Of a stretch of DNA of 64,000 nt, positions 20,918 through 44,380 are shown in pieces. The stretch comes from a virus, in the IMG/VR virus record IMGVR_UViG_3300032308_002092, positions 64,001 through 128,000 of that record; one strand, 5' to 3'. The translations under genes were made by a program, and so were the position numbers. Position 1 is the first letter of the stretch. Each line of letters starts with the position of its first letter. Under the pieces are notes generated by a model. That model made no database searches, was not told the DNA's origin, and was given only the letters and a program-made list of their open reading frames with translations.

Positions 20918-20982
20918 GTGACCCTCCGTATTTTGTTATTATGATCGGGTATAACTACCTAGTAACCCAAGGAGGATATACT

Positions 20983-29879: not shown

Positions 29880-31183
29880 GGAGCGTCCTTCTTATTATCT
29901 CGTCTGTTATTAGTTTTGCTGCCTCTTTGTGTATCACAGAGTTGTCGCGTGGCACAGTGGTTACCCTATCTATGGACCCACTGGAACTCAATAGCAACAC
30001 ATTCACCTGATCTCCATTGGAGCTTAGTTGTATTACTTTAGCGTAATGGTTTCCGTAGCTGCAGTAAACAAACGGAGAATCTCCATAGCCTTCGCACAAC
30101 CAGAAGTGCCAGTCGTCGCGAAGAAGAGAATTAGGAGGCATAGACACGTCAGGTTTGGTCTTAGGACGAGTGAACACTATTGTGTCTTCACCGTCTAGTC
30201 CTTTGATTGTCTTAATCGATGAATTTGCCATCTTTTATACAATGCCCCCTGAAGTAGTAGCCTTGTTTATCTAGGCACTCTTTTCTGTCTTGATCGATAC
30301 ACGACTTCACCATAAATAGAAACATCACAGAAACTAAGATCGTCAGCGCCAAGCTGTATGCAAACCTTGTCACGTAATTGTCCTTATCCATAGCCTACTC
30401 TTGTTGTGCTTTATTGAGATGGTCGGCAGCTGCTCTAGTCCACTCCACGTAGATTTGATCAGGGTACAGTCTGCCGAACCACGTTATGTCGCAGCCCGGA
30501 GTCCAGAAGTACCAGTTCCAGGTAGGGTGGTCGTTTAGCGCGTTGTTCCTAGCTGCTTTAGATCTGTTTGCTTCTTCTTGTAGCTTTTGCAGATCACCTT
30601 TTAGGTAGTAAAGTACTGCGTCTTCCATGCCTCTTATTGTTTCAAAGGCTTTGAGAACGTGTTTCTCCCATAGTTTACCAACGCCGTGTTGTCTATTGAG
30701 CATCAGCGTAGCATAAACTAAGTTCAACTGGTAGTGCTTGTAGACTGTAAGTGCCTCAATCAAAGCAAGTGGGCCTCTCAACCAATTGAGCAAGAAGTAC
30801 CATATGATGCGCCAGCCAGCAAAGTGCATCTTTAGCTTAAGGGTTGGGATACAGGCTATCAGCTGAGCAAACCCCAGTACTCCCAGCTTGTTTCGGCCAT
30901 CTGTGGACGACGGTGTTATCAGCCCACCAGTTTTAACTACGTATCTAAGCATAAGGATGTGGTCGATGGTTGACCCGCCAAGCATAGCACCTAGGAACAT
31001 GTCCCTGCTAGATGAGTTTGGGTAATCCTTTTGCGCTATTGCCGCTTCTGGGTTGCGCCAGACTCTGCCGTCTCGGTCAATGCACTGAGACACGTATAGA
31101 GATGCTTCGTAGTCGCCAACATGAGAAAACATCCCTGCGTATAGGGTGCTGTCGCCATGTACTTCTTTGTATTTTGGGTTCAT
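29872..31183 (-). CDS. Hypothetical proteins (29872..30231; 30395..31183, 262 aa)
   Basis: Clean ORFs; AGGAGG SD before 31183. Confidence 0.6.
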
Positions 31184-31252
31184 ATATCCTCCTACTCAGG
31201 GTTATACCGAGAGGGTGGGGTGGTGTGGGCGCGCCGTAGCAGTGTCAGGTGT

Positions 31253-31312: not shown

Positions 31313-31819
31313 TTAGCCAACCAAAGCCCTAAGGTGCTCTGGGATTGAGGAGAGGTCGAGTTGCTTTGCTTTGTTTTGGCGAGGGGTCTTAGCTGGCTTG
31401 CTAGCTACCATCTCAGCCCTAACATTAGCAATGAAGTTTTTCACTTCAACGATCTTAGTTTCTTCTGCGCCTGAAGCAATAAGATTCTTGAGTACCTCAG
31501 TTGCTTGCTTGATCTGTGGGTTAGTACGGCTACCAGGGTTTTTAGCTTCATACTTGCCGCCGCCGTTGATCTGAGGTGCCTTATTGAACCAGTTAGCTAC
31601 GACGCTAGAAGCGTAAGACCTGAGTGCTTTGTCGTCATCTAGCTTACCAGCCGAGCGCTGTGCCAAGACGACTTCGCCAGAAATGAAGCCTTCAAGCATA
31701 AGGCTAACGATCTCACGACGTTGCTCTTCAGTTACGTACGAAGAAATGGGGGCACTACTATTAAAACTAGAACCAAGGACCTGCTTAGTATACGTTACGA
31801 CCGCTTCATTTTGTTTCAT
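31313..31819 (-). CDS. Ribozyme-flanked paralog A (168 aa, unknown function)
   Basis: Shares RSY..S...NW..K.P..NGG.K...KNPGSR and C-terminal DLS.[IL]PEHL..LVG with 40126 and 43512. Confidence 0.85.
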   Translation of the reverse strand: MKQNEAVVTYTKQVLGSSFNSSAPISSYVTEEQRREIVSLMLEGFISGEVVLAQRSAGKLDDDKALRSYASSVVANWFNKAPQINGGGKYEAKNPGSRTNPQIKQATEVLKNLIASGAEETKIVEVKNFIANVRAEMVASKPAKTPRQNKAKQLDLSSIPEHLRALVG

Positions 31820-31843: not shown

Positions 31844-31900
31844 TGACTCATCAGTGCTGGAACCTACCAGCAGATACCCTTGGTATCGGGTATTTCGTCA
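31844..31900 (-). ncRNA. Type II hammerhead ribozyme HH-b
   Basis: UGAC-GAAA-UACCC(8)GGGUA-UC/-UGCUGG(6)CCAGCA-CUGAUGA-GUCA; AUC cleavage between 31873 and 31872. Confidence 0.92.
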
Positions 31901-33936
31901 TTAGTCTATTGCTGCGTAGTCATCTGGGAAGAAGGTTTCTTCTTCCATCTGACGGCTATTGAAGTCTAGCTGCTCATACACATCGTCTTCATAGTCGGAC
32001 AAATAGATATAATCTTGGTTGATTTGCACCGTGTTCACGACCATACCATCGGGCATAACCACGGTTGAATTAGGATCTTGTTGCGAAAGAATCTTAATGA
32101 GTTCTGAAACCAGCATATCAAACCTCCTTTATTTACTTGTGCATATTGATTCGGGAATCATGACCTGAGTGTTAGTCTAGTTCCATCTGGCATCGTCGTA
32201 TAGCTTACGTCGGATGGTAAGGCACTGGTCACTCTAGTGAAGGTTTCTAGTTGCTTGCCTTTACCATCGAACGATCGCGCGCAGCCTGTGCCATCACACA
32301 AGATGAATGAGTCTTGGTTGTAAGTCTGAGCCATGCTCTTCATCAAGTCAAACAACGACCAGCCTATGGTGTTAGGCGAACCACTTACAAGCCAAACATT
32401 CTCCATCTGATCTTTGTAAGATCCTCTGACGTACGTAGTTTTAAACCCATTCATCCTAATGAAGAAGCCTAGCTGCTCATGATCCTGCATATTTCTAATG
32501 TCGTCTTTGTCGCTTTTGTCTGCGGAGATCAGAGCGAAGATAGTATCTAAATCTAGTTTCATGTTAACCCCACTTTCGTTTGTTTGCTAAAACACAAAGT
32601 ACACCAAAGAATAAAGATATTAAGAACTTGAAAAAAGCATACTCAAGATTGCCGTTAATCAAATCAAACCATCCAAATACCTGTAGGAAGATACTTACGA
32701 TAAACAGCGCGATGGCTAAGTTCACTTGCCTCTCCTTACGATCAGGAGGATCGCGGTAATTATTTTCTTAAAAAAGTCAATCATCTTTCTCTCCTTCTTT
32801 TTCTGGGTGAAATTTATCGAGCACCTTAGCGAAGATCATCAGCAGCAGTACTGTTACTGCGAGCCCACCGATTATTGATATCGGTATCGCGACTCCAATA
32901 GCTATAACGTAAAGCAATATACTCATTAGCTAACTTCCTCGCTTTCCTCGTAGATGTACCAGTCATTGGGCTTAAGACTAGCTGTCTTCTGCTCATACTC
33001 GTGTTTGCCGTATGAATACGCGAAGGCTCTGCCGTTCCAAACTATGAACGGAGCTGGGTGATCTTTGTGTGAGATCTTAGCTCCCTTGAGGGCCTCAATC
33101 AATGCTTCTTCTAGAGTCATGATCAGCTCCAATCGTTAGGGTCTTTGTTTTTGCCCTTGACTTCTTCGTAGAAGATAATACAAAGCAATCCCACCATGAA
33201 GATGCCACCAAAGAAACCCGCTATAGAAATTGCAGCCATGAATCCTGTTAATGCTGAGTCCACGATATTACTCTCCTAGTATTTGTTGCTCTATTTGTTG
33301 CGTCATATATTTGTCTAACGTGAACTGAATAACATGGTTGTGAACATCTTTTACCTTTAGATAAACCGAATGAGGTGTTAGATCGCCTCTTGAATTCAGA
33401 TAGCAGTTCGCTACTAGCTTAAAGGAATAAGGGGTTTTTGGATGTTTTATGGTCTTAGATACTGTGGTGTACGACTTACCTTTTCGCTTAGCACACTCTT
33501 TAACAGCATAATGGTAGTGAGAGATAAGGGCGTCTAGGGTAAATTCGCTGCCTTCTACTGGACCCAGGCTTAGGTCTATGATTGTTCTATGCTCTCCAGT
33601 AACCGTAAATAAACACATGTTGCTAACCCCTACTCGTTATCGTTGAATAGTATTGGTTTCGGATACTCACTTAAGGTCTTGTGTCTCTGAGTAGAGAAGG
33701 TGTGACATAGAGTCCATCACCACAAGAGTACTCTGCTTGCCATACTTAGACACCATGTCTGCCTTGAGGGAGCGAAACTCAGCTCTACACTTCTCTCGCT
33801 CTGCGACTTCTCTGAAGTATTGTCTACCCTCGGCGGCCTCGTAGTAAGAGAGATCAGCTATGGATACTATAAATTTTTTGATTAGCTCGCAATTGTAGTT
33901 CATGCAACCTCCAATAAGATATTGGATCGGGATCAC
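31901..33936 (-). CDS. Run of small hypothetical early genes (31901..32116, 32158..32562, 32926..33132, 33268..33618, 33667..~33903 and several <60-aa TM peptides)
   Basis: Co-oriented ORFs, several preceded by the CCGA motif and SD. Confidence 0.55.
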
Positions 33937-34163
33937 CTATCGGATGGGTTGCCGTGGCCGTTATCGCATAAGTCTTCTCCACAGCCAGCGCCACCGCCAC
34001 ACCCATCACCATAACCGTTGCCATCGCCATAGCCATCACCACTAGGGCTGCAATTACTTAAACCACAGCCATAACCATCGCCGCTTTTCTTAATATAGTT
34101 GTCACCATTGGGTCTACCGTAATGGTAACCGTAGCTAAAACCATCTATTTCTAGAGATTCCAC
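33933..34163 (-). CDS. Gly/Asp-rich family member 10
   Basis: LEIDGFS ... PSDR. Confidence 0.82.
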   Translation of the reverse strand: MESLEIDGFSYGYHYGRPNGDNYIKKSGDGYGCGLSNCSPSGDGYGDGNGYGDGCGGGAGCGEDLCDNGHGNPSDR

Positions 34164-34169
34164 GATAGC

Positions 34170-34388
34170 TCACCAATCAGATGGGTAGTGATCGAACCGA
34201 TCTTCGGTGCCACTACCGCAACCATCACCATACTCATCGCTATGTCCATCACCTCTGCCATAACCGTCGCCGTCAGCAGTGCCACCACTTAAACCCCAAC
34301 CATCACCATCGCTGTAAGTATGACTATCGCCGTTGGCCATGCCGTAACGATCGCCGTAACCAAAAGCATCTATTTTTAGAGATTTCAT
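34170..34388 (-). CDS. Gly/Asp-rich family member 11
   Basis: LKIDAFG ... PSDW. Confidence 0.85.
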   Translation of the reverse strand: MKSLKIDAFGYGDRYGMANGDSHTYSDGDGWGLSGGTADGDGYGRGDGHSDEYGDGCGSGTEDRFDHYPSDW

Positions 34389-34408
34389 GGTTTATTCTCA
34401 GTCTGAGA

Positions 34409-34744
34409 TTAAAGCCACTTATTCAAGTCAGCTTTCATCACAAAGATATCCTTACCGAAGATCGTACCAGCTTCGTTTAGCACAGTCTCAGCCTGAGGAC
34501 CTTCGACGCACAGCTGGCCGAGACCCTTGGTCGTACCCCATCGGTGGATGTTGTAGGCGTTGTCAAGCCTGATTCTCTCGCTGGAGAGGCGAGTAACGAA
34601 GCCGATGAATACCCAACCGCGATCCATGACTGCGATGACTAGATCGCCGTTCTCATAGTCAAGCTTAGGCTGAGGTGCGCCTCGCAAAGACTCCTCAACC
34701 TGACTGTTGATTACATAATTACCGAATAACTTACTCTTAGCCAT
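34409..34744 (-). CDS. DUF6948-like phage protein
   Basis: VMDRGWVFIG...LDNAYNIHRWGTTKGLGQL..EGP, recognised from memory; own CCGATA motif and AAGGAGG SD. Confidence 0.7.
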   Translation of the reverse strand: MAKSKLFGNYVINSQVEESLRGAPQPKLDYENGDLVIAVMDRGWVFIGFVTRLSSERIRLDNAYNIHRWGTTKGLGQLCVEGPQAETVLNEAGTIFGKDIFVMKADLNKWL

Positions 34745-34881
34745 AATAAACCTCCTTTGTTTCTGTCTATATTTATATCGGAAATGATACTCTGTGGACC
34801 GTTACAATCCTCTTTCGCTGTTATACATCAGAAATACAATCGCAACAGTGAAACCAAGTATAAGTAGCGCAAATACACTCA

Positions 34882-35097
34882 TTAAGAAATCTCGCTTGCT
34901 TCTACGTATTGGCTGAAGATTTCTGGGTATCTTTGTACGTAACCGTTGTCTTCTAGGAAGTAGTACAGAGCTACACCAGGTGGTACTTCGTCATCGAAGT
35001 TGCTCCGCCAAGCGTAGTCTTCGAAGTCACTCGTAGTTAATCCCGTGACCTTAACACACAGCTTATCTACTTTGTTCATGTAAGACTTGAAAGACAT
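34882..35097 (-). CDS. Hypothetical protein
   Basis: 71-aa ORF. Confidence 0.55.
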   Translation of the reverse strand: MSFKSYMNKVDKLCVKVTGLTTSDFEDYAWRSNFDDEVPPGVALYYFLEDNGYVQRYPEIFSQYVEASEIS

Positions 35098-35155
35098 ACA
35101 AACCCCTTATTGAAGACACCCCATCGTTGGGATATATAATCTGGTTTCGGGATTC

Positions 35156-35350
35156 TCACCAGTCTGATAGATCATCGTAGCCATAACAGTCACCGTAGCT
35201 CTCTCCATCACCATTTCCATAGCCGTATCCGCTACCACTACCGTCGTATTCTGTAATGATGATGATATTAGGGCCTTCAGAGCCGCTGTCGCCGTCACCG
35301 TTATAGTGGCCGTCACCACAACCCCAGCCATCTATTTCTAGCTTGTCCAT
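35156..35350 (-). CDS. Gly/Asp-rich family member 12
   Basis: LEIDGWG ... LSDW. Confidence 0.82.
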   Translation of the reverse strand: MDKLEIDGWGCGDGHYNGDGDSGSEGPNIIIITEYDGSGSGYGYGNGDGESYGDCYGYDDLSDW

Positions 35351-35356
35351 TGCTCT

Positions 35357-35596
35357 TCACTTATCTGACGGGCCGTGATGGCCCTTGCCACTGCCATCTC
35401 CAACAACGAGATCTTGCCCCAGACAATTTAGATCATAACCATAGCCATCGCCATTAGGGAGGCTGTCTCCGTAGCCACAGCCATACCTCTCTCCATCGTA
35501 GCCATAACCATAGTTCCCATGGACACCACTGCCATCGCCGCAGAAGTAACCGTGAAAGCGTCCATAACCTAAGCCGTCTATGTCTAGCTTGTCCAT
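35357..35596 (-). CDS. Gly/Asp-rich family member 13
   Basis: LDIDGLG ... PSDK. Confidence 0.85.
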   Translation of the reverse strand: MDKLDIDGLGYGRFHGYFCGDGSGVHGNYGYGYDGERYGCGYGDSLPNGDGYGYDLNCLGQDLVVGDGSGKGHHGPSDK

Positions 35597-35599
35597 GGT

Positions 35600-35896
35600 T
35601 TATGCTTTACGCTTCTTCTTTTGGCCGTCTTTGATGGCCTGAACCTCTGCTTGGTCAAGCGGGACACCGTGGCGGTACCAGCTATCACCCCACACCGCGC
35701 CGTCTTCCCAGTAGGTTATAGCAGGGCTACCCTCACGATGTAACCTACCTTGGCAATACCAATACTCGGTGTCTACCTTGCCGTCTTCGCTATAGTAGAC
35801 AATGGCAGGGCCATCCACACGATGTGGAACACCCTCCTCCAGGTATCGCTCGGACTCTACCTTACCGTTTTCGTAGTGTTTCTTAACGCACTCCAT
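35600..35896 (-). CDS. MORN-variant / HRxDGPA repeat protein
   Basis: YENGKVESERY..G.PHRVDGPAIVYY and LHREGSPAITYW repeats. Confidence 0.75.
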   Translation of the reverse strand: MECVKKHYENGKVESERYLEEGVPHRVDGPAIVYYSEDGKVDTEYWYCQGRLHREGSPAITYWEDGAVWGDSWYRHGVPLDQAEVQAIKDGQKKKRKA

Positions 35897-35908
35897 AAAT
35901 CTCCTTGA

Positions 35909-36148
35909 TTACCAATCTGAAGGCATGTCATGATCATCACCTGAACCCCAGCCGTTGCCGTGGTTGTAGGACGTATCACCATAGCCAACACCATCGCGAT
36001 AAATTGGGTGATAGCCACGACCATGGAGATCACTGCCACCATTGCCCCAGCCATCCCCACTCGCCATGGAGTATTCACCTTCTCCCTCGCCGTTACCATC
36101 CCACCAACAGTCTGGTGAGCCGTCGCCATCTATGTCTAGCTTTTCCAT
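35909..36148 (-). CDS. Gly/Asp-rich family member 14
   Basis: LDIDGDG ... PSDW. Confidence 0.85.
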   Translation of the reverse strand: MEKLDIDGDGSPDCWWDGNGEGEGEYSMASGDGWGNGGSDLHGRGYHPIYRDGVGYGDTSYNHGNGWGSGDDHDMPSDW

Positions 36149-36155
36149 AAGTTAG

Positions 36156-36422
36156 TTACCAATCTGAGGGTTCTAAATCTTCCCCATCACCAGCACCATC
36201 TCCACCGGTGTCGCCACCAGAACCGTCGCAATAACCATCACCGCCGAGGGTGGTATAACCGCTGCCTCTTCCGTCGCCGGTTCCAGTGCCGCAGTCGCCG
36301 TCGCCATAGCGATCGTCTGGTATAGAGGGGCTATAGCAACCTATACCGCCGTCCCCATTAGGGGACGTTCTGTCTACACCACAACCAAATCCATCCACAG
36401 CGAGCTTGCTTTCTAATATCAC
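36156..36422 (-). CDS. Gly/Asp-rich family member 15
   Basis: LAVDGFG ... PSDW. Confidence 0.82.
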   Translation of the reverse strand: MILESKLAVDGFGCGVDRTSPNGDGGIGCYSPSIPDDRYGDGDCGTGTGDGRGSGYTTLGGDGYCDGSGGDTGGDGAGDGEDLEPSDW

Positions 36423-36434
36423 TTAATATGTCCT

Positions 36435-36668
36435 CTACCAGTCAGAAGGGTCACCCTCAGGCTGTATCTCATGGAATTGGATGAATGTCATAGAATCGGA
36501 TTTTGTGAGTTCGTGTTCGCCGTAGCCATAGCCGTCACCATTTGGTTTGGTTCTGCCTATGAAGCTATCTGGCGTTTTTACGCCCTCTCCAAAGCCGTCG
36601 CCATGTATCCTACCGTATTGACCATAGCCGTAGCCAACTCCGTCTACGATCGTCTCGCCTATCTTCAT
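36435..36668 (-). CDS. Gly/Asp-rich family member 16
   Basis: TIVDGVG ... GDPSDW. Confidence 0.82.
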   Translation of the reverse strand: MKIGETIVDGVGYGYGQYGRIHGDGFGEGVKTPDSFIGRTKPNGDGYGYGEHELTKSDSMTFIQFHEIQPEGDPSDW

Positions 36669-37134
36669 GGGTCCTCATATCCATTAAAGCTGCCCGCCAA
36701 GAAAAGCCGCCCGCCAAGAACGCTATTGAGCTTAACGTAGTTAAACTCTTCTTTTGAGGTTCGCTTAAGTGTTTCAAGCATAAATAGCTTCTTGGCTTCC
36801 TCTGATTCCATCACTTTGATACCATCTACCCAGATGCTGCATTCCGGACTACATATCTCTTCATACCCAGCCTTATATCCAGCAGCGGACACCTCTTCTA
36901 AAGTGAGAGGCTGGTCTTTGATGGCCTCATACATTTCTCGCACCTGTTCATACGACACTTCTGTTTTGCGATGAGGACCCCCAGTTTGTTGAGAGCCGTT
37001 CTCACTACCTCCTTGACCATTATGGGAAACCATTAGGCCCATCACTATAAACGCCGCCGCCGCACCCATTACTTACCCTCCTCTTTCTTACACAACACCT
37101 ATCTTCATAGGTCCTCATATCCATTAAAGCTGCC
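36658..37134. repeat. 37-bp direct repeat (36658..36694 and 37098..37134) flanking ORF 36665..37069
   Basis: cctatcttcatRggtcctcatatccattaaagctgcc, one mismatch. Confidence 0.9.
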
Positions 37135-37405
37135 ACCATTTACGTGGGGTGCGTGGGACACTTGCATGAGGATGCGGCTTTTCTATCTCAAGGTGCCGAA
37201 TGGCTACAACATCAAATAGCTCTATCCCATTCGTGTTGCGACCCTCTTTATCAACGTAAACACAGGAAGCAACCCCCGGAGCAAACAGCACCATTAAATA
37301 AAACGCCGGTGACCAATCAGCGCGTTCGTTGAATTCAACAAACGAACCCACTAGTCCGTTTCTAAGTGTGATCTCGTCCCAAGCCTTTAGTTTTGTAATA
37401 TCCAT
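36665..37405 (-). CDS. Two hypothetical proteins (36665..37069 with N-terminal hydrophobic segment; 37124..37405)
   Basis: GGAGG SDs. Confidence 0.6.
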
Positions 37406-37445
37406 AATGGCCTCCTTTTTATAGTAATTTTAATACACTAATCAT

Positions 37446-37755
37446 TCCCAAACTTCAATCTCACCAGTCAGCTCAACTACCTGAACCGGCTCACCTTAGG
37501 TATCTCAAATACAGAAACATCCTCGTCCCTTAGATTTTCAGTCTTGCCTATGGGAATTCTTATCTCATACAAAACCCCATCGCTACCTGTCACGCGAGTG
37601 TATCCACGTTCTTTCAAGCTTGAGAGCTGCTCCCTCGTGAGGTCCTCAAAGATTTCTATGGGCACAGGTCCTTTGTCTGTCAAGAACCCTTCTTCAATTA
37701 ACCGGTCAATTACTTTAGACATATTACAAACTACTCCCAAACTTCAATCTCACCA
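37446..37755. repeat. 21-bp direct repeat (37446..37466 and 37735..37755) flanking ORF 37477..~37722
   Basis: tcccaaacttcaatctcacca exact in both copies. Confidence 0.85.
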
Positions 37756-37951
37756 CTCCGAAGGGGTCTCCCTTAGTATCCCTGTCTCTTGTACCTGCAA
37801 AATGGGCACCGAACAACAGTCTAACATTACCTTGAGAACCGAAGTCCTCATCAAAGACTGGCAGGCTTCGTCCCATGCCTCACACTCCAACTACATACAG
37901 AACGAAGATCCCTATCAGGATGGCAGCCCAAACCCCAATTAGTATCTCCAT
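37750..37951 (-). pseudogene. Possible decayed 17th Gly/Asp-family gene
   Basis: Ends CCT TCG GAG TGG TGA (PSEW*), preceded by GGA GAC one base out of frame; no intact frame. Confidence 0.35.
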
Positions 37952-37964
37952 AGTCCCTATCCCC

Positions 37965-38440
37965 TTAAAGCAGGCTCAGTATGAAGCCTAGCACCACCAA
38001 GAACACCCAAAGCACCACAGAGTACAAAACAACAGTCAAGTACCATAGCCACAAAGCGGTCATCCCGACTATCTCTCTGAAGCCGGGGATAGACATCAAA
38101 CCGCATACTGCAGCTATAGCCAACACCAGTACGACCACCCTTGCCAGTAAGCGCCGCATAACCCCTCCCCATATCGTGATTCATATACCTTCGGAATATA
38201 ACTCAAGGGTCTGATGCCCACTTCCCACCCCTACTTAAACTTACAGCTCAAACCAGCTTTATTCAGGCCGTTATATCTATAGCAAATCACTTCGCTATTC
38301 TCTAGTCTGTACACACCAAAACCAACCGCCTTAGCTTCGCTAAAGCCATACTCACCGTCAACACCTCCATCAACGTTAGGCTCAGATACCCTAAAAGTAC
38401 ATCCGCTCAATACAATCAATCCAACCACTAGCACCTTCAT
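37965..38440 (-). CDS. Small membrane protein (37965..38159) and small lipoprotein (38231..38440, LSGC)
   Basis: Hydrophobic segments / lipobox; GGAGG SDs. Confidence 0.6.
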
Positions 38441-39470
38441 AAACCCCTCCCCACAATTACCCTACAACTATCCATTATCAATTCGGAATCCCATACCTTA
38501 CCTTCCCCAAACCCTGGGTGGAAGATATAGTAACCGCCGTAACTAACTTATAAACCCCTAAAATAACCTCTTATAACAACCTATACCCACCTATACCCAG
38601 TTATAACTACCTACTAATCCCTATACCCTCAAATACCCTAATCCCCTACGTAACTACTACTATTAGATACACTTAAGTGCCAAAACCTACCGTAACTAAC
38701 ACGTACGTATCACCTTAACCCCATACCATTCCCAACCAACCACCTATACCAGTTAGTAGCACGAAAGGGATAGGGAGTGGACTGGTAGAGTTATAGTGAT
38801 AATGATCCTCACCATTACTATAGGAAAGACATAAAAACTATAGTGATTTAACTAGCCTAGGGCGAGCCTATAGGCAGGTTGTTTCCGCCCACAACTATCC
38901 CTACTCTCGCAACAACATCTCTCACTTGTGGCCACGCCGCGGTAACCTATAGGGTTACAAATCACCACGGTTTTGCCCACCTATAGGTTTACAGGTCGGG
39001 TATCCTGCTCCCTCCTACCCTATCCCTACAGATACCTCCCGGGTGGTTTGCGTGTTGTCCTAGGGGTAAATCGGGTGTCGAGGAAATCATTAGGCTTTTT
39101 GGTAGTTGGGTTGGGAATGGTGCTTTCCCCTAGGGGTAAAATGAGATAGGTGGGTGGCTTTGTTGATATTGCTAGAGATTTTAGTTTCGGGATGATAGGA
39201 GTGAGAGAAGTCCTAGGGAGTTTTGCTCGTTTTAGGGCTTCGGGTGTGGGGCGTAGCAGTGTCAGGTGGTTTGGTGGGGTTGTTGGGCTACGGGGTGGGA
39301 TAATGATATCAGTGAGTTACGGGTGTTTTGGTGGCGCGAGTTGGTGCGCTTAGGGCTGGGGGTTTATATACACTTTTATTTTGTGGTCTTGAGTTGTAGT
39401 TGGGAGAGTAGGATAAGTAGGGTGCGAATTCAAGTTGTTTGGGGGTGGCTATGATAAGCCCGTAGCCCAA
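38441..39470. other. Largest non-coding region, with C-rich to G-rich skew switch; candidate replication origin
   Basis: C/A-rich 38441-38760, G/T-rich 39060-39460; repeated cctata, cgtaacta and cctaggggtaaa. Confidence 0.5.
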
Positions 39471-40012
39471 TCAGACTATATACTCTTCGTCTAGTGGCTC
39501 ATCGTATAGGTGAGCTATGGAGTGCCATGGTCCTGGGACTGTGAAGAGGTCTAAGTTGCCAGAGCGTATAGCGTGAGCCTTAGCCATAGCTTCGTCCATG
39601 TCAGAGTGAGAGGAAACTACCCACGTCACTAGGTTGTGGACTTCGGAATCCACCTTCACGATAGTGTCGAAAGTAGAGTGGTCGTACATCACGAAGTACC
39701 TAATAGGTTGCATAACATAGTCTCCTTACTTAATGGACAAGTTAATGAAGATGAGAGTCATTATCAACAAGAATATAGCCGCTGTGCCTGGATCCATCAC
39801 TCTGTCTCTTCCACGGTTATGGTGTAGGACTTGTCGTACTGGTCCTTCACTATGATGGTGCGCTTAGGTGACCTAAAGCTACCGTCTTCGTTTAAGTCCA
39901 TCTTTATCTCTACGTTCCTGAGCTTTATCTCAGTCGCCTTAGGTATGGCCGCAGTGATCACATGAGTGATATAGTCGCAGTATGCTAATCTCAACCCGCT
40001 TGACTTAAACAT
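39471..40012 (-). CDS. Small hypothetical proteins (39471..39713; 39797..40012)
   Basis: AAGGAG SDs. Confidence 0.6.
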
Positions 40013-40050
40013 AGTCGTTCCTCCTTATATAGGGGATGGTATCGGAAACC

Positions 40051-40113
40051 GGACTCATCAGCATGGCTATCAGCCATGGACCTAGGATCTCGAGCGAGTC
40101 CTAGGTTTCGTCC
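40051..40113 (-). ncRNA. Type II hammerhead ribozyme HH-c
   Basis: GGAC-GAAA-CCUAGGA...UCCUAGG-UC/-CAUGGCU(3)AGCCAUG-CUGAUGA-GUCC; GUC cleavage between 40079 and 40078. Confidence 0.92.
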
Positions 40114-40125
40114 TCGGTTACGGAC

Positions 40126-40572
40126 TTATCCCACCAGGGATCTCAAGTGCTCGGGTAGTGCGGAGAGGTCCACAGTCTTGGCAGCAGACTTAGGCTGTGG
40201 GCGGTTAGCTTCAATGAACGCTTCGAGCTCAGCTGTAACTTCAGATCCCTTAGCGATCAGAGCCGCTTTGAGAGCTAGAGCTTGCTTGAACTCTGGGCTA
40301 CCAGATCGGCTACCAGGGTTCTTGACTTCGTGCTTGACCCCACCGTTGAGGGCAGGTGACTTACGGAGCCAGTTGCTGAGCAGACCTGAAGCGTAGCTTC
40401 GCGCCTTAGCTTCGCTGTACTCCTTGCTCAAGCTGATCTCTCCGTTCATGAGTCCCGCTACGAGCATACCGATTGCTTCCTTGCGTTGCTCACTAGTTAG
40501 GGTGACTGCTTCCGCAGTTACTCCAACGATTGACTGTACGATCTCTACGACTGCCTTTGATTGTGACTTCAT
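40126..40572 (-). CDS. Ribozyme-flanked paralog B (148 aa)
   Basis: RSYASGLLSNWLRKSPALNGGVKHEVKNPGSR; VDLSALPEHLRSLVG. Confidence 0.85.
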   Translation of the reverse strand: MKSQSKAVVEIVQSIVGVTAEAVTLTSEQRKEAIGMLVAGLMNGEISLSKEYSEAKARSYASGLLSNWLRKSPALNGGVKHEVKNPGSRSGSPEFKQALALKAALIAKGSEVTAELEAFIEANRPQPKSAAKTVDLSALPEHLRSLVG

Positions 40573-40590
40573 ATGTAACACTCCTTAATT

Positions 40591-40647
40591 AGACTCATCA
40601 GTGCCAGAACCTACTGGCAGATACCCTTGCTATCGGGTATTTCGTCT
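40591..40647 (-). ncRNA. Type II hammerhead ribozyme HH-d
   Basis: AGAC-GAAA-UACCC(8)GGGUA-UC/-UGCCAG(6)CUGGCA-CUGAUGA-GUCU; AUC cleavage between 40620 and 40619. Confidence 0.92.
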
Positions 40648-40651
40648 TAAG

Positions 40652-40801
40652 TTACCGACAGTAGTGATCGGCGTAGTTGCAGTAGAAGTCATAGACTTCG
40701 TCGTCAGTCCACGAGTCACAAGAGTAGTCTACGTCATCGTTTCCCGCTGCGATCATCTGAGCGAGGATGATGTTCACCGTAGTGCGAAGCGAACCTCTCA
40801 T
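40652..40801 (-). CDS. Unlisted 49-aa acidic peptide (MRGSLRTTVN...DHYCR)
   Basis: AAGGAG SD and CCGATA motif upstream; stop 4 nt before HH-d. Confidence 0.6.
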   Translation of the reverse strand: MRGSLRTTVNIILAQMIAAGNDDVDYSCDSWTDDEVYDFYCNYADHYCR

Positions 40802-40948
40802 ATGAAGCACTCCTTGGTTAATCAACCTTGGTTGGTTGATAGTTATATATGGTATCGGGAAACTGGGGCTGCATCGGATCGTGGGGCCGAGGTGTGGGTT
40901 CGGGTGCTGGGCGTAGCAGTGTCGGGCTTCACGCAGACACCCTCGGTA

Positions 40949-42139
40949 TCACTCCAGACCCTTGCAGGAGCTAGCGTCGTTGCTCTCGTTGGCCTGACAA
41001 GCCACGTACTTCTCGCTGCTTTCCTTGGAGTTAGCCACCGAGATCTCACCTACTACGTTGATGGAGGTGTTGACTACAACTCCGCCCACGATAGCGTACA
41101 CACAGTACAAGACCACTAGTTCGATGCCCATTATAATGCCCCTTATAAACCTTAAAGCCCACTTAAACTGCCATTCTAATAGCTAGAATGGTATTCTAAA
41201 ATCTAGTATGTTATACTTTGCCCTTACCCCGGCAAGTTCTGCTTGTAGTACAAGTCACCCCAGTCGATGTAGAAGTCCTCGACCTTAGCGTGATCCCAAG
41301 CGTCGGACCACAGCTTGATATCCTCGTAGCTATCCATGCTCATCTCCCTGCCAGTCACCAACTTAAAGGCATCGTTCATGAACATATTAGCGTCTACGTA
41401 GTCATGCGAAGCGCACTCATGCTTATGGTTGTGCTTGTTAGCTTCGCATATATCAACCATAGTGGCTAGACCAAGCTCAGCCATCAGTAACTCGGAGAAC
41501 TTTTCTGCTATCTGTTCGTGTAGCTCTACTTCGAAATCCATCGTTCACCCCGGTAAGTTGTCTAGTATAAAGTTAAGCTCTTCTACTACTTCGTCGGAAA
41601 CAGGTTGATCTAGTGCCTCATCAGGTACATCTGGGTAGTATTCCAGCTTGAATTCGTCCCAAGCGAACTGCATTAACTGTCTAAGCGTAAGTTCGTTCAT
41701 TGTCCACCTCTTTCTTCTAAGGCTTGATACACTCGCTTCAGTAGCTCTGTGGGTTCGGTATAGAAATCATCCTTATCTAACTGCACCATATCCAGGTTTA
41801 TCAGCGCCTGACTGAACCTCATATCGGGATAGGTCCTCAAGTAGGTCTCTAGTATCCGTAGTAGCTCCAAGTTAGCATGTAGTCGGACGCTCGTTGGTTG
41901 ACTCATAATAACCTCCTAGTTACATATAGATATAGATTCGGATACGACTATCAGAACCACTCACCCTTTCTTACAATCACCACTCTACTCGCTGTATTGA
42001 CTATCATCGCTCTTCTCCTTCTGCCATCGGAGAAGTATCTCATAGCCTCTTGTAAAGCAGAGAATGAGTGTATAGTCATGAAAGACCGTGCATCAGTTGA
42101 GCCGTGCCAAACCTGAACTTGATACATAATAAACTCCAA
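40949..42139 (-). CDS. Small hypothetical early genes (40949..41131, 41224..41541, 41697..41906, 41951..42139)
   Basis: Co-oriented short ORFs. Confidence 0.5.
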
Positions 42140-42254
42140 TGTGTAAGAGAACTTTGTTATTCTCTTATTAATAATATATAGTTACGGGAATTAAATTCCC
42201 CTGGGCGTAGCAGTGTCAGATAGTGGTATAATACCCTTAGGTTAAGGAGAACAC

Positions 42255-42731
42255 ATGGAAAAGCTAATCAAGCATAGCAACGGGCAGTGGACACTAGTTA
42301 AGGCCAAGGACACTAGTAAGCACGGCAACTTCGGTGGTGGTAACTCCTTTGACGGAGGAGACCAGTATGTCCCCTCTAAAGAGGGTATTGCAGCAAACGC
42401 GGCTAGAGCAGCGGAGCAGAAACGCCTAGAAGCAGAAGCGAGCGCAGTATCGGCTGCACACAAAGATGTAGCCGACAGAGGCGAAGTTCGCCGACGCACC
42501 GAGCCGCCGAAAACCGTAGAAGATCACCCACTACACGGCGAGTTAGTTAATCACTTCAAGAACAAGCATGGGTTGGACCATCACGCTGCGTTTGCTGCGG
42601 CTACTCATGTCATGACTTCGGGCCTCGGCGAAAAGACTCATGAAAGTGACTCAGATAAAGCAGCTACTGGTTCTGGAGCAGCCGAGGCCAAGAAGATCCT
42701 GGCTGGTAAGGTTAAGACCAAGATCTCTTAG
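42255..42731 (+). CDS. Isolated late-type gene, possibly head-internal protein
   Basis: GGTATAAT and AAGGAG upstream; N-terminal MEKLIKHSNGQWTLVKA; Ala/Lys/His-rich. Confidence 0.6.
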   Translation: MEKLIKHSNGQWTLVKAKDTSKHGNFGGGNSFDGGDQYVPSKEGIAANAARAAEQKRLEAEASAVSAAHKDVADRGEVRRRTEPPKTVEDHPLHGELVNHFKNKHGLDHHAAFAAATHVMTSGLGEKTHESDSDKAATGSGAAEAKKILAGKVKTKIS

Positions 42732-42736
42732 TCGTC

Positions 42737-43003
42737 TTATATAAGACCTTGTTCACTCAGTTGCTTCATCAGTGAATCATCATTCTTAGACCCAAAGACT
42801 CTCACTACATCCTCATAATCACATAGTTCATCGGGGTCGTCGTGACATACGAACGCTAGTCCTTCGACTGTCTTCCACACTGAGAACTCATATATGCAGT
42901 GAACTCCTGTCTCTACGTAACCATCAGGTTCAGTGATTGAGCCATCGAACATCTTCCCCGCTTCTAACTCTGCAACAAGTTGATCGACTGTGAACTTACT
43001 CAT
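42737..43003 (-). CDS. Acidic 88-aa protein, paralog of 43080..43346
   Basis: TGVH.IY.F.VW.T.EGL.F.C..DPDE shared. Confidence 0.8.
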   Translation of the reverse strand: MSKFTVDQLVAELEAGKMFDGSITEPDGYVETGVHCIYEFSVWKTVEGLAFVCHDDPDELCDYEDVVRVFGSKNDDSLMKQLSEQGLI

Positions 43004-43020
43004 AGTGACTCCTTAAAGTT

Positions 43021-43080
43021 AGACTCATCAGTGTGACTCTTAGTCACAGACTATCTTCGTTTCGGAAGATAGTTTCGTCT
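43021..43080 (-). ncRNA. Type II hammerhead ribozyme HH-e
   Basis: AGAC-GAAA-CUAUCUUC(6)GAAGAUAG-UC/-UGUGACU(3)AGUCACA-CUGAUGA-GUCU; GUC cleavage between 43049 and 43048. Confidence 0.92.
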
Positions 43081-43346
43081 TATGCGAGACCTACTGCACT
43101 CAGCTGCTGATCAAGAGTGTCGTCTTCCTTATCCTCCTCGAAGAACCGCTTGACATCGTCGTAAGTTAGTATCTCATCGGGGTCTTCAGTGCATATGAAC
43201 CTCAAACCTTCGTCAGTGTCCCACACCTCGAAGTCGTATATGGAGTGAACACCGGTGCTCACGCCTCCGTGTGACAGGAACTCACCTGCAGTTAGTCTAC
43301 CATCGGCGATCGCTTCTTCTAACTCTCTGACTGTGATCTTACTCAT
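43080..43346 (-). CDS. Acidic 88-aa protein, paralog of 42737..43003
   Basis: Shared motif with 42737..43003; GAGGAG SD. Confidence 0.8.
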   Translation of the reverse strand: MSKITVRELEEAIADGRLTAGEFLSHGGVSTGVHSIYDFEVWDTDEGLRFICTEDPDEILTYDDVKRFFEEDKEDDTLDQQLSAVGLA

Positions 43347-43511
43347 GACTTCTCCTCATGTTGTTCACACATTAATAGAATCGGAAAACACACTAATAAA
43401 TATTTAAGTTTTTCAACTCATTTATTTATTAATAATATATAGTTTCGGAAACTATATCCCTGGGCGTAGCAGTGTCAGTGGGTACGGGCACCACGCCCGC
43501 ACCCAACTCAC

Positions 43512-43961
43512 TTAGCCAACCAACTTCTGGAGGTGCTCGGGAAGCGCTGAGATATCCACGGTCTTCTCGGTCTTCACCGGAGCGTTGGCTGCGATGAACA
43601 TCAGGAGCCCAGTAGGAATCTCCTTGCCTTGCTCAGCCAAGTACTTCTTAAGCGCGATCGCTTGCTTGTACTCATTGCTCCCACTTCGTGAGCCTGGGTT
43701 CTTAGCTACGTACTTCACTCCGCCATTCAACTCGGGCGACTTACGTACCCAGTTGTCCAGCAGTCCCACCGAGTAACTCCTCATCTTCTCGGGAGTGTCG
43801 TGCTTAGCCCGAGCACCCGCGCTCATATCAATCTCACCATCAACCAAGCCTTGTGTGATCAGAGTCAAGCACTCTTCTTTCTGCTCCTTGGTCAACTTAA
43901 CTCCGGGAGTAAATCCCTCGATCCCACTCACGATCGCTACGACTGCATCTACTTGCTTCAT
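43512..43961 (-). CDS. Ribozyme-preceded paralog C (149 aa)
   Basis: RSYSVGLLDNWVRKSPELNGGVKYVAKNPGSR; VDISALPEHLQKLVG. Confidence 0.85.
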   Translation of the reverse strand: MKQVDAVVAIVSGIEGFTPGVKLTKEQKEECLTLITQGLVDGEIDMSAGARAKHDTPEKMRSYSVGLLDNWVRKSPELNGGVKYVAKNPGSRSGSNEYKQAIALKKYLAEQGKEIPTGLLMFIAANAPVKTEKTVDISALPEHLQKLVG

Positions 43962-43979
43962 GTAACACTCCTTAAAGTT

Positions 43980-44036
43980 AGACTCATCAGTGCAACCACT
44001 TAGTTGCAGATACCCTTGCTATCGGGTATTTCGTCC
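43980..44036 (-). ncRNA. Type II hammerhead ribozyme HH-f
   Basis: GGAC-GAAA-UACCC(8)GGGUA-UC/-UGCAAC(6)GUUGCA-CUGAUGA-GUCU; AUC cleavage between 44009 and 44008. Confidence 0.92.
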
Positions 44037-44162
44037 TCACTTCTTCTTGAACACTAGTTCCTTAATCACATCGGATACAGTCAGAACTGCGAATCCCCCG
44101 ACTAGAACAACCATCAACATCCACGAGAGTTGCCAGAGATAGATCAGGTAAATCAATTCCAT
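44037..44162 (-). CDS. Unlisted 41-aa membrane peptide
   Basis: AAGGAGG SD; MELIYLIYLWQLSWMLMVVLVGGF...; TGA abuts HH-f. Confidence 0.55.
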   Translation of the reverse strand: MELIYLIYLWQLSWMLMVVLVGGFAVLTVSDVIKELVFKKK

Positions 44163-44380
44163 CGGATCCTCCTTGTAGAGATAGTTAGAATCGGGGAGGT
44201 TATTCTCACCCGTTTCCTTCAGTAAGGGGAGGTAATATCGGGAAGTATACCCGCTAGCCTCTGCTTACAGGGAACCCCTTGTTTCGGAAGTACCGATGAG
44301 GGTGCCTAAACACTCTCTACATACTACTTTTACAACTATTGCCATAAGGGATAAACAACCATACCCACCGCCCTTACCCT

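Follow-up and report, generated by a model that had tools for sequence, protein, structure and literature searches.

Promoter-like CCGA boxes within stem-loop III of type II hammerhead ribozymes in the gene leaders of an uncultured tailed phage: a possible overlap of promoter and ribozyme

The DNA analysed here (the window) is a stretch of 64,000 nucleotides (nt), positions 64,001 to 128,000 of the virus record IMGVR_UViG_3300032308_002092. The record is a single contig of 151,207 base pairs (bp), of which the window is the middle part, and it belongs to an uncultured tailed phage encoding a tail sheath, a baseplate and a ribonucleotide reductase. From about 30 to 45 kb of the window, short leftward genes are densely packed, and among them lie hammerhead (HH) ribozymes of type II, four of which contain in stem-loop III a sequence resembling a promoter-like CCGA box that is dispersed over the phage genome. 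Hammerheads were called with a structure descriptor of our own, since Rfam is weak on these copies. The descriptor scan of the whole genome gave six type II hammerheads, every one on the minus strand and inside the window, as follows.

HH-a, 31312-31253, minus strand: starts immediately 3' of the stop codon of paralog A; core CUGACGA, GUC cut; no CCGA in stem III.
HH-b, 31900-31844, minus strand: leader of paralog A; predicted cut at 31873/31872, after AUC; the minimum-free-energy fold is the canonical three-way junction.
HH-c, 40113-40051, minus strand: 3' of the stop codon of paralog B; no CCGA in stem III.
HH-d, 40647-40591, minus strand: leader of paralog B; predicted cut at 40620/40619.
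HH-e, 43080-43021, minus strand: between the tandem paralogs 43080-43346 and 42737-43003; stem III of 9 bp with loop CGAAAC; predicted cut at 43049/43048.
HH-f, 44036-43980, minus strand: leader of paralog C; predicted cut at 44009/44008.

The genes that these ribozymes lead or follow are listed below.

Paralog A, 31313-31819, minus strand: 168 amino acids (aa), with HH-b on its 5' side and HH-a on its 3' side.
Paralog B, 40126-40572, minus strand: 148 aa, bracketed by HH-d and HH-c.
Paralog C, 43512-43961, minus strand: 149 aa, with HH-f in front and, after the stop codon, a 10-bp hairpin where paralog A has HH-a.
Gene led by HH-e, 42737-43003, minus strand: 88 aa (MSKFTVDQL...), a tandem paralog of 43080-43346 (88 aa, MSKITVREL...) with only HH-e between the two; no family assignment.

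Paralogs A, B and C share 37-44% protein identity and showed no match to Pfam or PHROG and no recognisable domain; in DNA, the led genes are 51-59% identical. Each of HH-b, HH-d and HH-f has a short gene ending directly in front of it and the Shine-Dalgarno (SD) sequence of the paralog directly behind it. Together with their genes they form one cassette family (repeat families D4, D5 and D10), and the three ribozymes are clearly copies of one ancestor. HH-e and HH-f have 26 identical nt in common (repeat family D13), and HH-e is probably related to HH-f by descent. The original prediction, made from the sequence of this stretch, described HH-a and HH-c as 3'-flanking ribozymes. They do stand behind the stop codons of paralogs A and B, respectively; the description falls short for HH-c, which is at the same time part of the leader of the following gene, 39797-40012.

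All six copies contain the catalytic core in the order CGAAA, stem III, UC, stem I and CUGAUGA (CUGACGA in HH-a). They have the type II permutation, in which stem II (4 bp) is open and stems I (6-7 bp) and III (6-9 bp) are closed by loops. The canonical junction was the minimum-free-energy fold in five of the six, and HH-a deviated in stem II only. The Rfam model RF02276 gave no match at gathering level in the window; HH-d was the sole copy seen (Hammerhead_II, 29.4 bits against a gathering score of 37, E 0.017), and the other five were not reported. Despite this sub-threshold score, the descriptor and the covariation still support the hammerhead fold. Among HH-b, HH-d and HH-f, three stem I pairs are altered on both sides (CTGG/CCAG, CCAG/CTGG and CAAC/GTTG), and the outer pair of stem II is T-A in HH-b and A-T in HH-d, while HH-f is changed on the 5' side only and has a G-T wobble. 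Possible pairings between loop I and the 3' tail, drawn by eye, are short (3-4 bp, for example the AAGU of loop I with the ACUU of the tail in HH-f). Such a pseudoknot occurs in most type II members and is the known tertiary contact of the class, which does not involve loop III (PMC3088659). HH-b, HH-d and HH-f are cut after AUC, a triplet found in 2 of 143 foreign type II hammerheads, as compared with GUC in 132 of the 143; this comparison set was drawn from 88 other viral contigs. AUC is thought to be disfavoured among natural hammerheads (PMC3185496, PMC1636495). The predicted motifs suggest that these RNAs cleave themselves in vivo.

Type II hammerheads flanking phage and prophage genes have been known since 2011, and cutting of long transcripts into gene-length mRNAs was proposed as their role (Perreault et al. 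2011, PMC3088659). The present copies resemble those ribozymes (RF02276) in the open stem II, the CUGANGA/GAAA/UH core and the loop-closed stems I and III, as well as in the occurrence of several copies between genes or bracketing single genes in one direction of transcription. They differ in that HH-b, HH-d and HH-f replace GUC by AUC and the tetraloop by a loop III of 8 nt, and in that only HH-d is visible to Rfam, below threshold. To our knowledge, a phage's own promoter-like box has not been described in stem-loop III of type II hammerheads.

The dispersed box was derived by expectation-maximisation over all 821 genomic CCGA sites, and then from 27 clean sites upstream of genes, which gave the consensus W-T-Y-CCGA-W-H-Y-N-A-T. 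With positions counted from the first C of CCGA, all 27 clean sites have A at +8 and A or T at -3, and none has G at -3 to -1 or at +4 to +6. The strict core W-H-Y-CCGA-W-H-Y-N-A has 35 occurrences on the minus strand and a single one on the plus strand, as compared with 5.6 expected per strand. A strand-biased use of the same box was also observed in relatives (20 versus 0 in G002, 7 versus 1 in G001). The clean sites lie 27-102 nt, mainly 27-60 nt, upstream of start codons, and about half of the leftward spacers of at least 25 nt hold a box. No conserved column was found between -50 and -4 of the 27 clean sites, nor was a -35-like element. The dispersed box is real, and by its sequence it is promoter-like. 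Matches to sigma70-like promoters were depleted between positions 30000 and 46000 of the window (7, as compared with 20.5 ± 4.5 expected from shuffles), which fits transcription of the block via a signal other than that of sigma70. A search for phage RNA polymerase genes found none; the negative with PF00940 is weak, as its control matched nothing in any control genome. We also considered whether the box is generally embedded in hairpins, as in structured promoters of the N4 type, and rejected the idea: stems of at least 5 bp were present in 32% of sites versus 27% of shuffles.

Canonical boxes occur upstream of all four leader ribozymes and next to HH-c, at the following places.

32143-32157, minus strand: canonical box of the short gene 31901-32116, with its first C at 32154; RNA started here would run on into HH-b.
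40847-40861, minus strand: canonical box CCCGATACCATATATAAC, first C at 40858, of the short gene upstream of HH-d.
43373-43451, minus strand: two canonical boxes in front of the gene 43080-43346, with the first C at 43384 and at 43448; RNA started here would run on into HH-e.
44183-44244, minus strand: two canonical boxes in front of the gene 44037-44162, with the first C at 44194 and at 44241; RNA started here would run on into HH-f.
40037-40048, minus strand: canonical box TTTCCGATACCAT, first C at 40045, beginning 6 nt past the 3' end of HH-c and 33 nt before the ATG of 39797-40012.

The CCGA of the leader ribozymes had been reported by the original prediction, as ATACCCGATA in stem-loop III of HH-b, HH-d and HH-f and as CTTCCGAAAC in that of HH-e, together with its lack in HH-a and HH-c. 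We confirmed the four occurrences by sequence and the two absences by the descriptor scan. The dispersed sites with which they had been compared, TTCCGAAAC at 43442-43450 and TACCCGATC at 20944-20952, are present as well. ATACCCGATA occurs exactly three times in the window, on the minus strand at 31884-31893, 40631-40640 and 44020-44029. In each ribozyme it runs from A15.1 through UACCC, which is the 5' strand of stem III, into the beginning of the 8-nt loop GAUA(C/G)CAA. CTTCCGAAAC, at 43058-43067, forms the top of the longer stem III of HH-e. We aligned the box core with each of the four copies and scored them with a leave-out position weight matrix, from whose training the four ribozyme sites were excluded; scores are log-likelihood ratios (LLR).

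Box core in HH-b, 31881-31892, minus strand: TACCCGATACCA, positions -3 to +8; every core position fits; leave-out LLR +2.85, rank 47 of 821.
Box core in HH-d, 40628-40639, minus strand: TACCCGATAGCA; G at +6, found in 0 of 27 clean sites; leave-out LLR -0.7.
Box core in HH-f, 44017-44028, minus strand: TACCCGATAGCA; leave-out LLR -1.9.
Box core in HH-e, 43057-43068, minus strand: CTTCCGAAACGA; C at -3, found in 0 of 27 clean sites; LLR -2.3; its 9-mer TTCCGAAAC is common with the canonical site 43442-43450.

All four copies match the informative positions Y at -1, CCGA, W at +4 and A at +8, and W at -3 and H at -2 are matched in HH-b, HH-d and HH-f only. They are intergenic, on the same strand as the genes, and lie 62-70 nt from the ATG, as compared with 27-102 nt for the clean sites. 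The placement of the motif about 10 nt before the cleavage site in the original prediction was a fair estimate, since in all four the first C lies 17 nt, and the last conserved base (A at +8) 8 nt, before the predicted cut. The offset of 17 nt is found in two different designs, a stem III of 6 bp with an 8-nt loop in HH-b, HH-d and HH-f and one of 9 bp with a 6-nt loop in HH-e. Both designs have CCGA and A at +8, which are the high-information positions of the box, and W at +4; they also agree in the A at +5 and +9 and the G at +10. The RNA contexts of these common bases differ; A at +8, for example, is looped in HH-b, HH-d and HH-f and paired in HH-e.

The canonical box with its first C at 43448 is itself centred in a perfect 21-nt palindrome, ATATAGTTTC-C-GAAACTATAT, at 43430-43452 on the minus strand, and the 9-mer TTCCGAAAC of this box recurs 380 nt downstream in stem-loop III of HH-e.

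Among the 143 foreign hammerheads, CCGA was present in stem-loop III of only 4 and CCGAWNNNA in none (0/143), and 78 of the 143 had tetraloops. The variation among HH-b, HH-d and HH-f is also uneven: stem-loop III varies at 1 of 18 positions, as compared with 8 of 18 in stem-loop I, where three pairs are fully compensated (Fisher p 0.018). Judging from this comparison, stem-loop III of the three copies is under constraint at the level of its sequence, beyond base pairing. The near-invariance of stem-loop III next to a covarying stem I suggests that the sequence itself, and not the pairing alone, is read by something. In addition, the unusual AUC in place of GUC puts U at position -3 of the box, where the clean sites need A or T. 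According to the original prediction, the idea of a promoter would fail if CCGA were needed only for the tertiary structure of the RNA; this appears unlikely, as CCGA is rare in type II hammerheads and the known contact is that between loop I and the 3' tail.

One possible explanation for these data is coincidence followed by duplication, in which the ancestral hammerhead had CCGA by chance, HH-b, HH-d and HH-f inherited it, and HH-e has it by chance or descent, without any function. CCGA is just a 4-mer, and about 3% of random stretches of 60 nt should contain the core pattern CCGAWNNNA. Coding CCGA sites taken at random score equally in about 3-6% of cases, and the match was found post hoc. 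That HH-b, HH-d and HH-f belong to one cassette family, and that HH-e is identical to HH-f over 26 nt, is in line with this explanation. It leaves unexplained, however, the near-invariant stem-loop III beside the covarying stem I, the 17-nt offset in two designs, the rare AUC and the lack of CCGAWNNNA in foreign hammerheads, and we consider it unlikely. We prefer, tentatively, the hypothesis that HH-b, HH-d, HH-e and HH-f are each one element of 57-60 nt in which a working promoter and a ribozyme overlap, and that the embedded boxes may fire.

Several observations weigh against this preferred hypothesis. It is from sequence that we infer the dispersed box to be a promoter in the first place, and the embedded copies match it poorly by the stricter measure. 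In the leave-out matrix they rank 47-83 of the 821 CCGA sites, below nearly all bona fide sites, and 2.6-6.5% of CCGA sites in coding regions score equally well. Higher ranks from the expectation-maximisation (10th, 25th, 28th and 49th) were discarded as circular, three near-identical copies having been part of the training. G at +6 (HH-d and HH-f) and C at -3 (HH-e) were never seen in the 27 clean sites, and the sole position of stem-loop III that varies among HH-b, HH-d and HH-f is this +6, a moderately informative position of the box. The sequence after +8 is not A/T-rich: HH-b, HH-d and HH-f have AGGG at +9 to +12 and HH-e has AGAT, whereas real sites are A/T-rich there (T at +9, A or T at +10 and +11). 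The GGG at +10 to +12 of the three copies is present because it pairs with the CCC of stem III. Owing to the shared ancestry of HH-b, HH-d and HH-f, and probably of HH-e with HH-f, the four cases amount to one or two independent events. The led genes, moreover, need no promoter of their own, since canonical boxes lie upstream and no terminator-like site was found between these boxes and the led genes. The geometry of the box is a further point. In the relative G002 (loci L259-L260), eight boxes between 15211 and 20929 each have TATAAT or TATAAA exactly 17 nt after the first C. This subset fits a box near -30, acting like the MotA box of T4 with an activator and a host -10 element, better than it fits a -10 element, and a TATAAT-type hexamer at +17 is absent from the ribozyme copies and from the proximal boxes of this phage. 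Finally, the foreign contig L033, which is without the box, has a hammerhead (1436-1493) with a very similar stem-loop III: the stem is 6 bp long, the loop reads GACAGAAA, and CCGA precedes the cut by 17 nt; an RNA-level or ancestral origin of the motif is thus possible. The claim of the original prediction that the same DNA is both promoter and ribozyme therefore stands in part: the match to the box is real and stem-loop III is evidently constrained, while the leave-out scores are low and three of the copies have, at +6 or -3, a base that no clean site shows.

The same observations bear on the alternative that the CCGA of stem-loop III no longer fires, having come from an earlier promoter captured by a hammerhead or from the ribozyme lineage itself, and that stem-loop III is kept constant since its hairpin is read as RNA, for example by a phage or host protein that binds this hairpin at the 3' end of the upstream product or tunes cleavage. 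The weak leave-out scores with the bases unseen in real sites, and the hammerhead of L033 in a contig without the box, point in this direction, and the invariance of stem-loop III does not tell reading of the DNA from reading of the RNA. The capture of an old promoter would also fit what is found in relatives, where a plain box without a ribozyme stands before the homologous gene in L002, L004, L005, L007-L009 and L014/15. The distance from this box to the ATG is 61 nt in L004 and L005, against 62-70 nt in the four ribozymes, and downstream of the box come a hairpin in the leader and an identical SD, AAGGAGTGTTA. A hammerhead precedes the homologous gene in one relative only, L017/G005, which does not use the box and has no CCGA in stem III. 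This lack, like the plain boxes, speaks in favour of the overlap. On the other side, loop III has no known tertiary contact in type II hammerheads, the contact being that of loop I with the 3' tail (PMC3088659), and the bases common to HH-e and the other three copies are in different structural contexts, which a linear DNA word fits better. No candidate RNA-binding partner was identified, and the led paralogs are without a recognisable domain. A dead element would not stay invariant at 17 of 18 positions while the coding DNA fell to 51-59% identity. In our view a silent or RNA-level motif is the main rival of the preferred hypothesis and only slightly less probable. Even with a silent box, a frozen stem-loop III beside a covarying stem I needs explaining, and it points to a reader of the sequence.

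Deposited phages showed no match to the region by Megablast, and a pattern scan of viral contigs for the same arrangement of box and ribozyme gave 0 hits. The corresponding pattern scan of metagenomes gave at least 120 hits, and none of those listed was a hammerhead. A scan for stem-loop III of the type of HH-b, HH-d and HH-f returned L033 as the only true hammerhead; a 19-nt identity in L277 was rejected, as it is not a ribozyme and is probably due to chance. The search of five related records with RF02276 found nothing, at a low sensitivity, since the hammerhead of L017, detected by our own descriptor, was also missed.

As a candidate reader of the box, we noticed an open reading frame (ORF) with a weak match to region 2 of sigma-70, outside the window.

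Sigma-like ORF, genome positions 38984-39649 (= L001:1402-2067), plus strand: 221 aa; weak sigma-70 region-2 match; candidate box reader.

It scored 19.8 bits with Sigma70_r2 (cut-off 24) and 24.5 bits with FliA_WhiG (cut-off 189.6; NCBIfam E 2e-5), so that its best matches, which are weak, are FliA and WhiG. A profile built from 12 homologues of the ORF hit FliA in the PDB (6pmi_F, E 0.015), and one homologue is labelled 'specialized sigma subunit' by one JGI source. Region 4 was not detected in the ORF, which differs from members of the sigma28 family in this and in lying far below the family cut-offs. The -10 element of sigma28, as known from the fliC promoter, is (-15)GCCGATAA(-8), with A-11 flipped out (PMC12784957). 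The phage box and the promoters of sigma28 (FliA/WhiG) have the CCGA(T/A) core in common, and neither has a conserved base at -7. The phage box differs in having Y (C or T) before CCGA where sigma28 promoters have G, in that +5 and +6 are not AA, in the extra invariant A at +8, and in lacking a -35 element of the TAAA type within 50 nt. A geometry like that of sigma28 would put the start 14 nt after the first C. The shortest sites, in which the box is 27-32 nt from the ATG and the SD lies at +19 to +27, leave no room for a geometry other than a start at 14 nt. If the embedded box were a sigma28-like -10 element, the start would fall 3 nt before the ribozyme cut.

In the preferred hypothesis of a promoter-ribozyme overlap, the CCGA of stem-loop III would be a retained and probably weak copy of the strand-specific box W-T-Y-CCGA-W-H-Y-N-A of this phage, written into the part of the hammerhead that tolerates arbitrary sequence. 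Transcripts from the canonical boxes 150-400 nt upstream would pass through the short gene into the ribozyme. Cleavage after C17 would then give two products. The upstream mRNA would have the stem III hairpin at its end and carry a 2',3'-cyclic phosphate. The downstream mRNA would start with a 5'-OH at the base of the stem I hairpin, and behind this hairpin would come CUGAUGAGUCU, the SD and the ATG. A polymerase recruited at the embedded box would, with sigma28-like geometry, start about 3 nt before the cut, at A14 in HH-b, HH-d and HH-f and at G14 in HH-e (counted from the first C). The resulting transcript would lack the 5' half of the ribozyme, would not be cleaved and would bear a 5'-triphosphate. 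Both routes would yield the same leader and coding body, with a different chemistry of the 5' end (triphosphate or OH). That initiation and cleavage would give nearly the same mRNA, as originally predicted, is therefore sound geometrically on the condition that the box is a sigma28-like -10 element, with its start 3 nt before the cut.

The original prediction went one step further and proposed that the two kinds of 5' end, triphosphate and OH, possibly switch the mRNA between linear and ligatable forms. For the bracketed genes, paralogs A and B, the ligatable form might be circular. An RNA cut by hammerheads at both sides has a 5'-OH and a 2',3'-cyclic phosphate, the ends used as substrates by RtcB-type ligases. 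Since two genes are bracketed by pairs of hammerheads (HH-b with HH-a, and HH-d with HH-c), their doubly cut RNAs would carry such ends. We found no support for this switch: no recognisable gene for RtcB, Rnl1 or Rnl2 was found in the phage, and bracketing is not fixed in the family, as a plain hairpin takes the place of HH-a in paralog C. Spliced or circular products of gene-flanking prophage hammerheads were sought by Perreault et al. and none was found (PMC3088659). We regard a ligatable form as very improbable.

A coincidence of transcript ends with hammerhead cuts has been met in other systems. In the haloviruses HF1 and HF2, a hammerhead precedes the helicase gene, and the 5' end of the major transcript maps within 3 nt of the cut (PMC3088659). 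As in the present case, the hammerhead of a phage stands shortly before an early gene, and transcript 'start' and cleavage site coincide. It differs in the archaeal host and the variant core, no promoter motif was reported inside the ribozyme, and the coincidence was taken as evidence of cleavage. In peach latent mosaic viroid, an initiation site and the GUC cleavage site of the hammerhead lie in one motif of 6-7 bp (work of 2005, reviewed in PMC3185496). There, primary and processed RNAs have a near-identical 5' end with different chemistry, as would be the case here; the viroid differs in its RNA template, chloroplast polymerase and rolling-circle replicon, as compared with double-stranded DNA, a DNA box and mRNAs in the phage. 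RiboJ insulators, which are attributed to Lou et al. 2012, reportedly have a hammerhead-type ribozyme between the promoter and the ribosome-binding site that trims variable upstream RNA. They are said to leave a fixed leader that begins with a hairpin, making expression independent of the start position. RiboJ is engineered and lies downstream of its promoter, whereas the element in the phage is natural and has the promoter-like box inside the ribozyme.

If the overlap were true, the phage element would be a natural counterpart of RiboJ and a parallel, at the DNA level, to peach latent mosaic viroid. Among DNA genomes, it would be the first natural example of initiation and ribozyme processing that converge on one 5' end of an mRNA, with an insulator built in and possibly two mRNA pools of differing stability. 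It would also be a warning for transcript mapping, because 5' ends at ribozyme cuts may be either starts or cuts, and only the chemistry of the end would discriminate between them.

Other features of the window were noticed near the ribozymes. A word of 17-21 nt, CTGACACTGCTACGCCC, occurs in five copies after gene ends, on the minus strand at 31228-31248, 39245-39265, 40905-40925, 42199-42219 and 43458-43478. The copy at 31228 adjoins the 3' side of HH-a and that at 43458 follows the 10-bp hairpin. Behind the word there is often either a CCGA box or a tract rich in C and poor in G; the word is also present in L004, L005 and L016, and its core, GACACTGCTACGC(C), is conserved in distant relatives. 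It could be a signal for 3' ends or termination (possibly rut-like) or part of a terminator-promoter module. We rejected it as a host sigma70 promoter, as a -10-like hexamer at the right distance was found in one of the five copies only. At 40925-40950 on the minus strand, just upstream of a CTGACACTGCTACG repeat, GATACCGAGGGTGTCTGCGTG resembles stem III, the cut site and the start of stem I of HH-d (ATACCCGATAGCAAGGGTATCTGCCAG), without the loop or CUGAUGA, and may be a decayed copy of a hammerhead. Further along the block, a run of small genes with repeats of the Gly/Asp type (GCCATCGCCATAGCC-like DNA repeats; families D1-D3, D6 and D7) lies at 33970-36640 on the minus strand. A 37-nt direct repeat is found at 36658-36694 and 37098-37134, the two copies being 97% identical and 440 nt apart.

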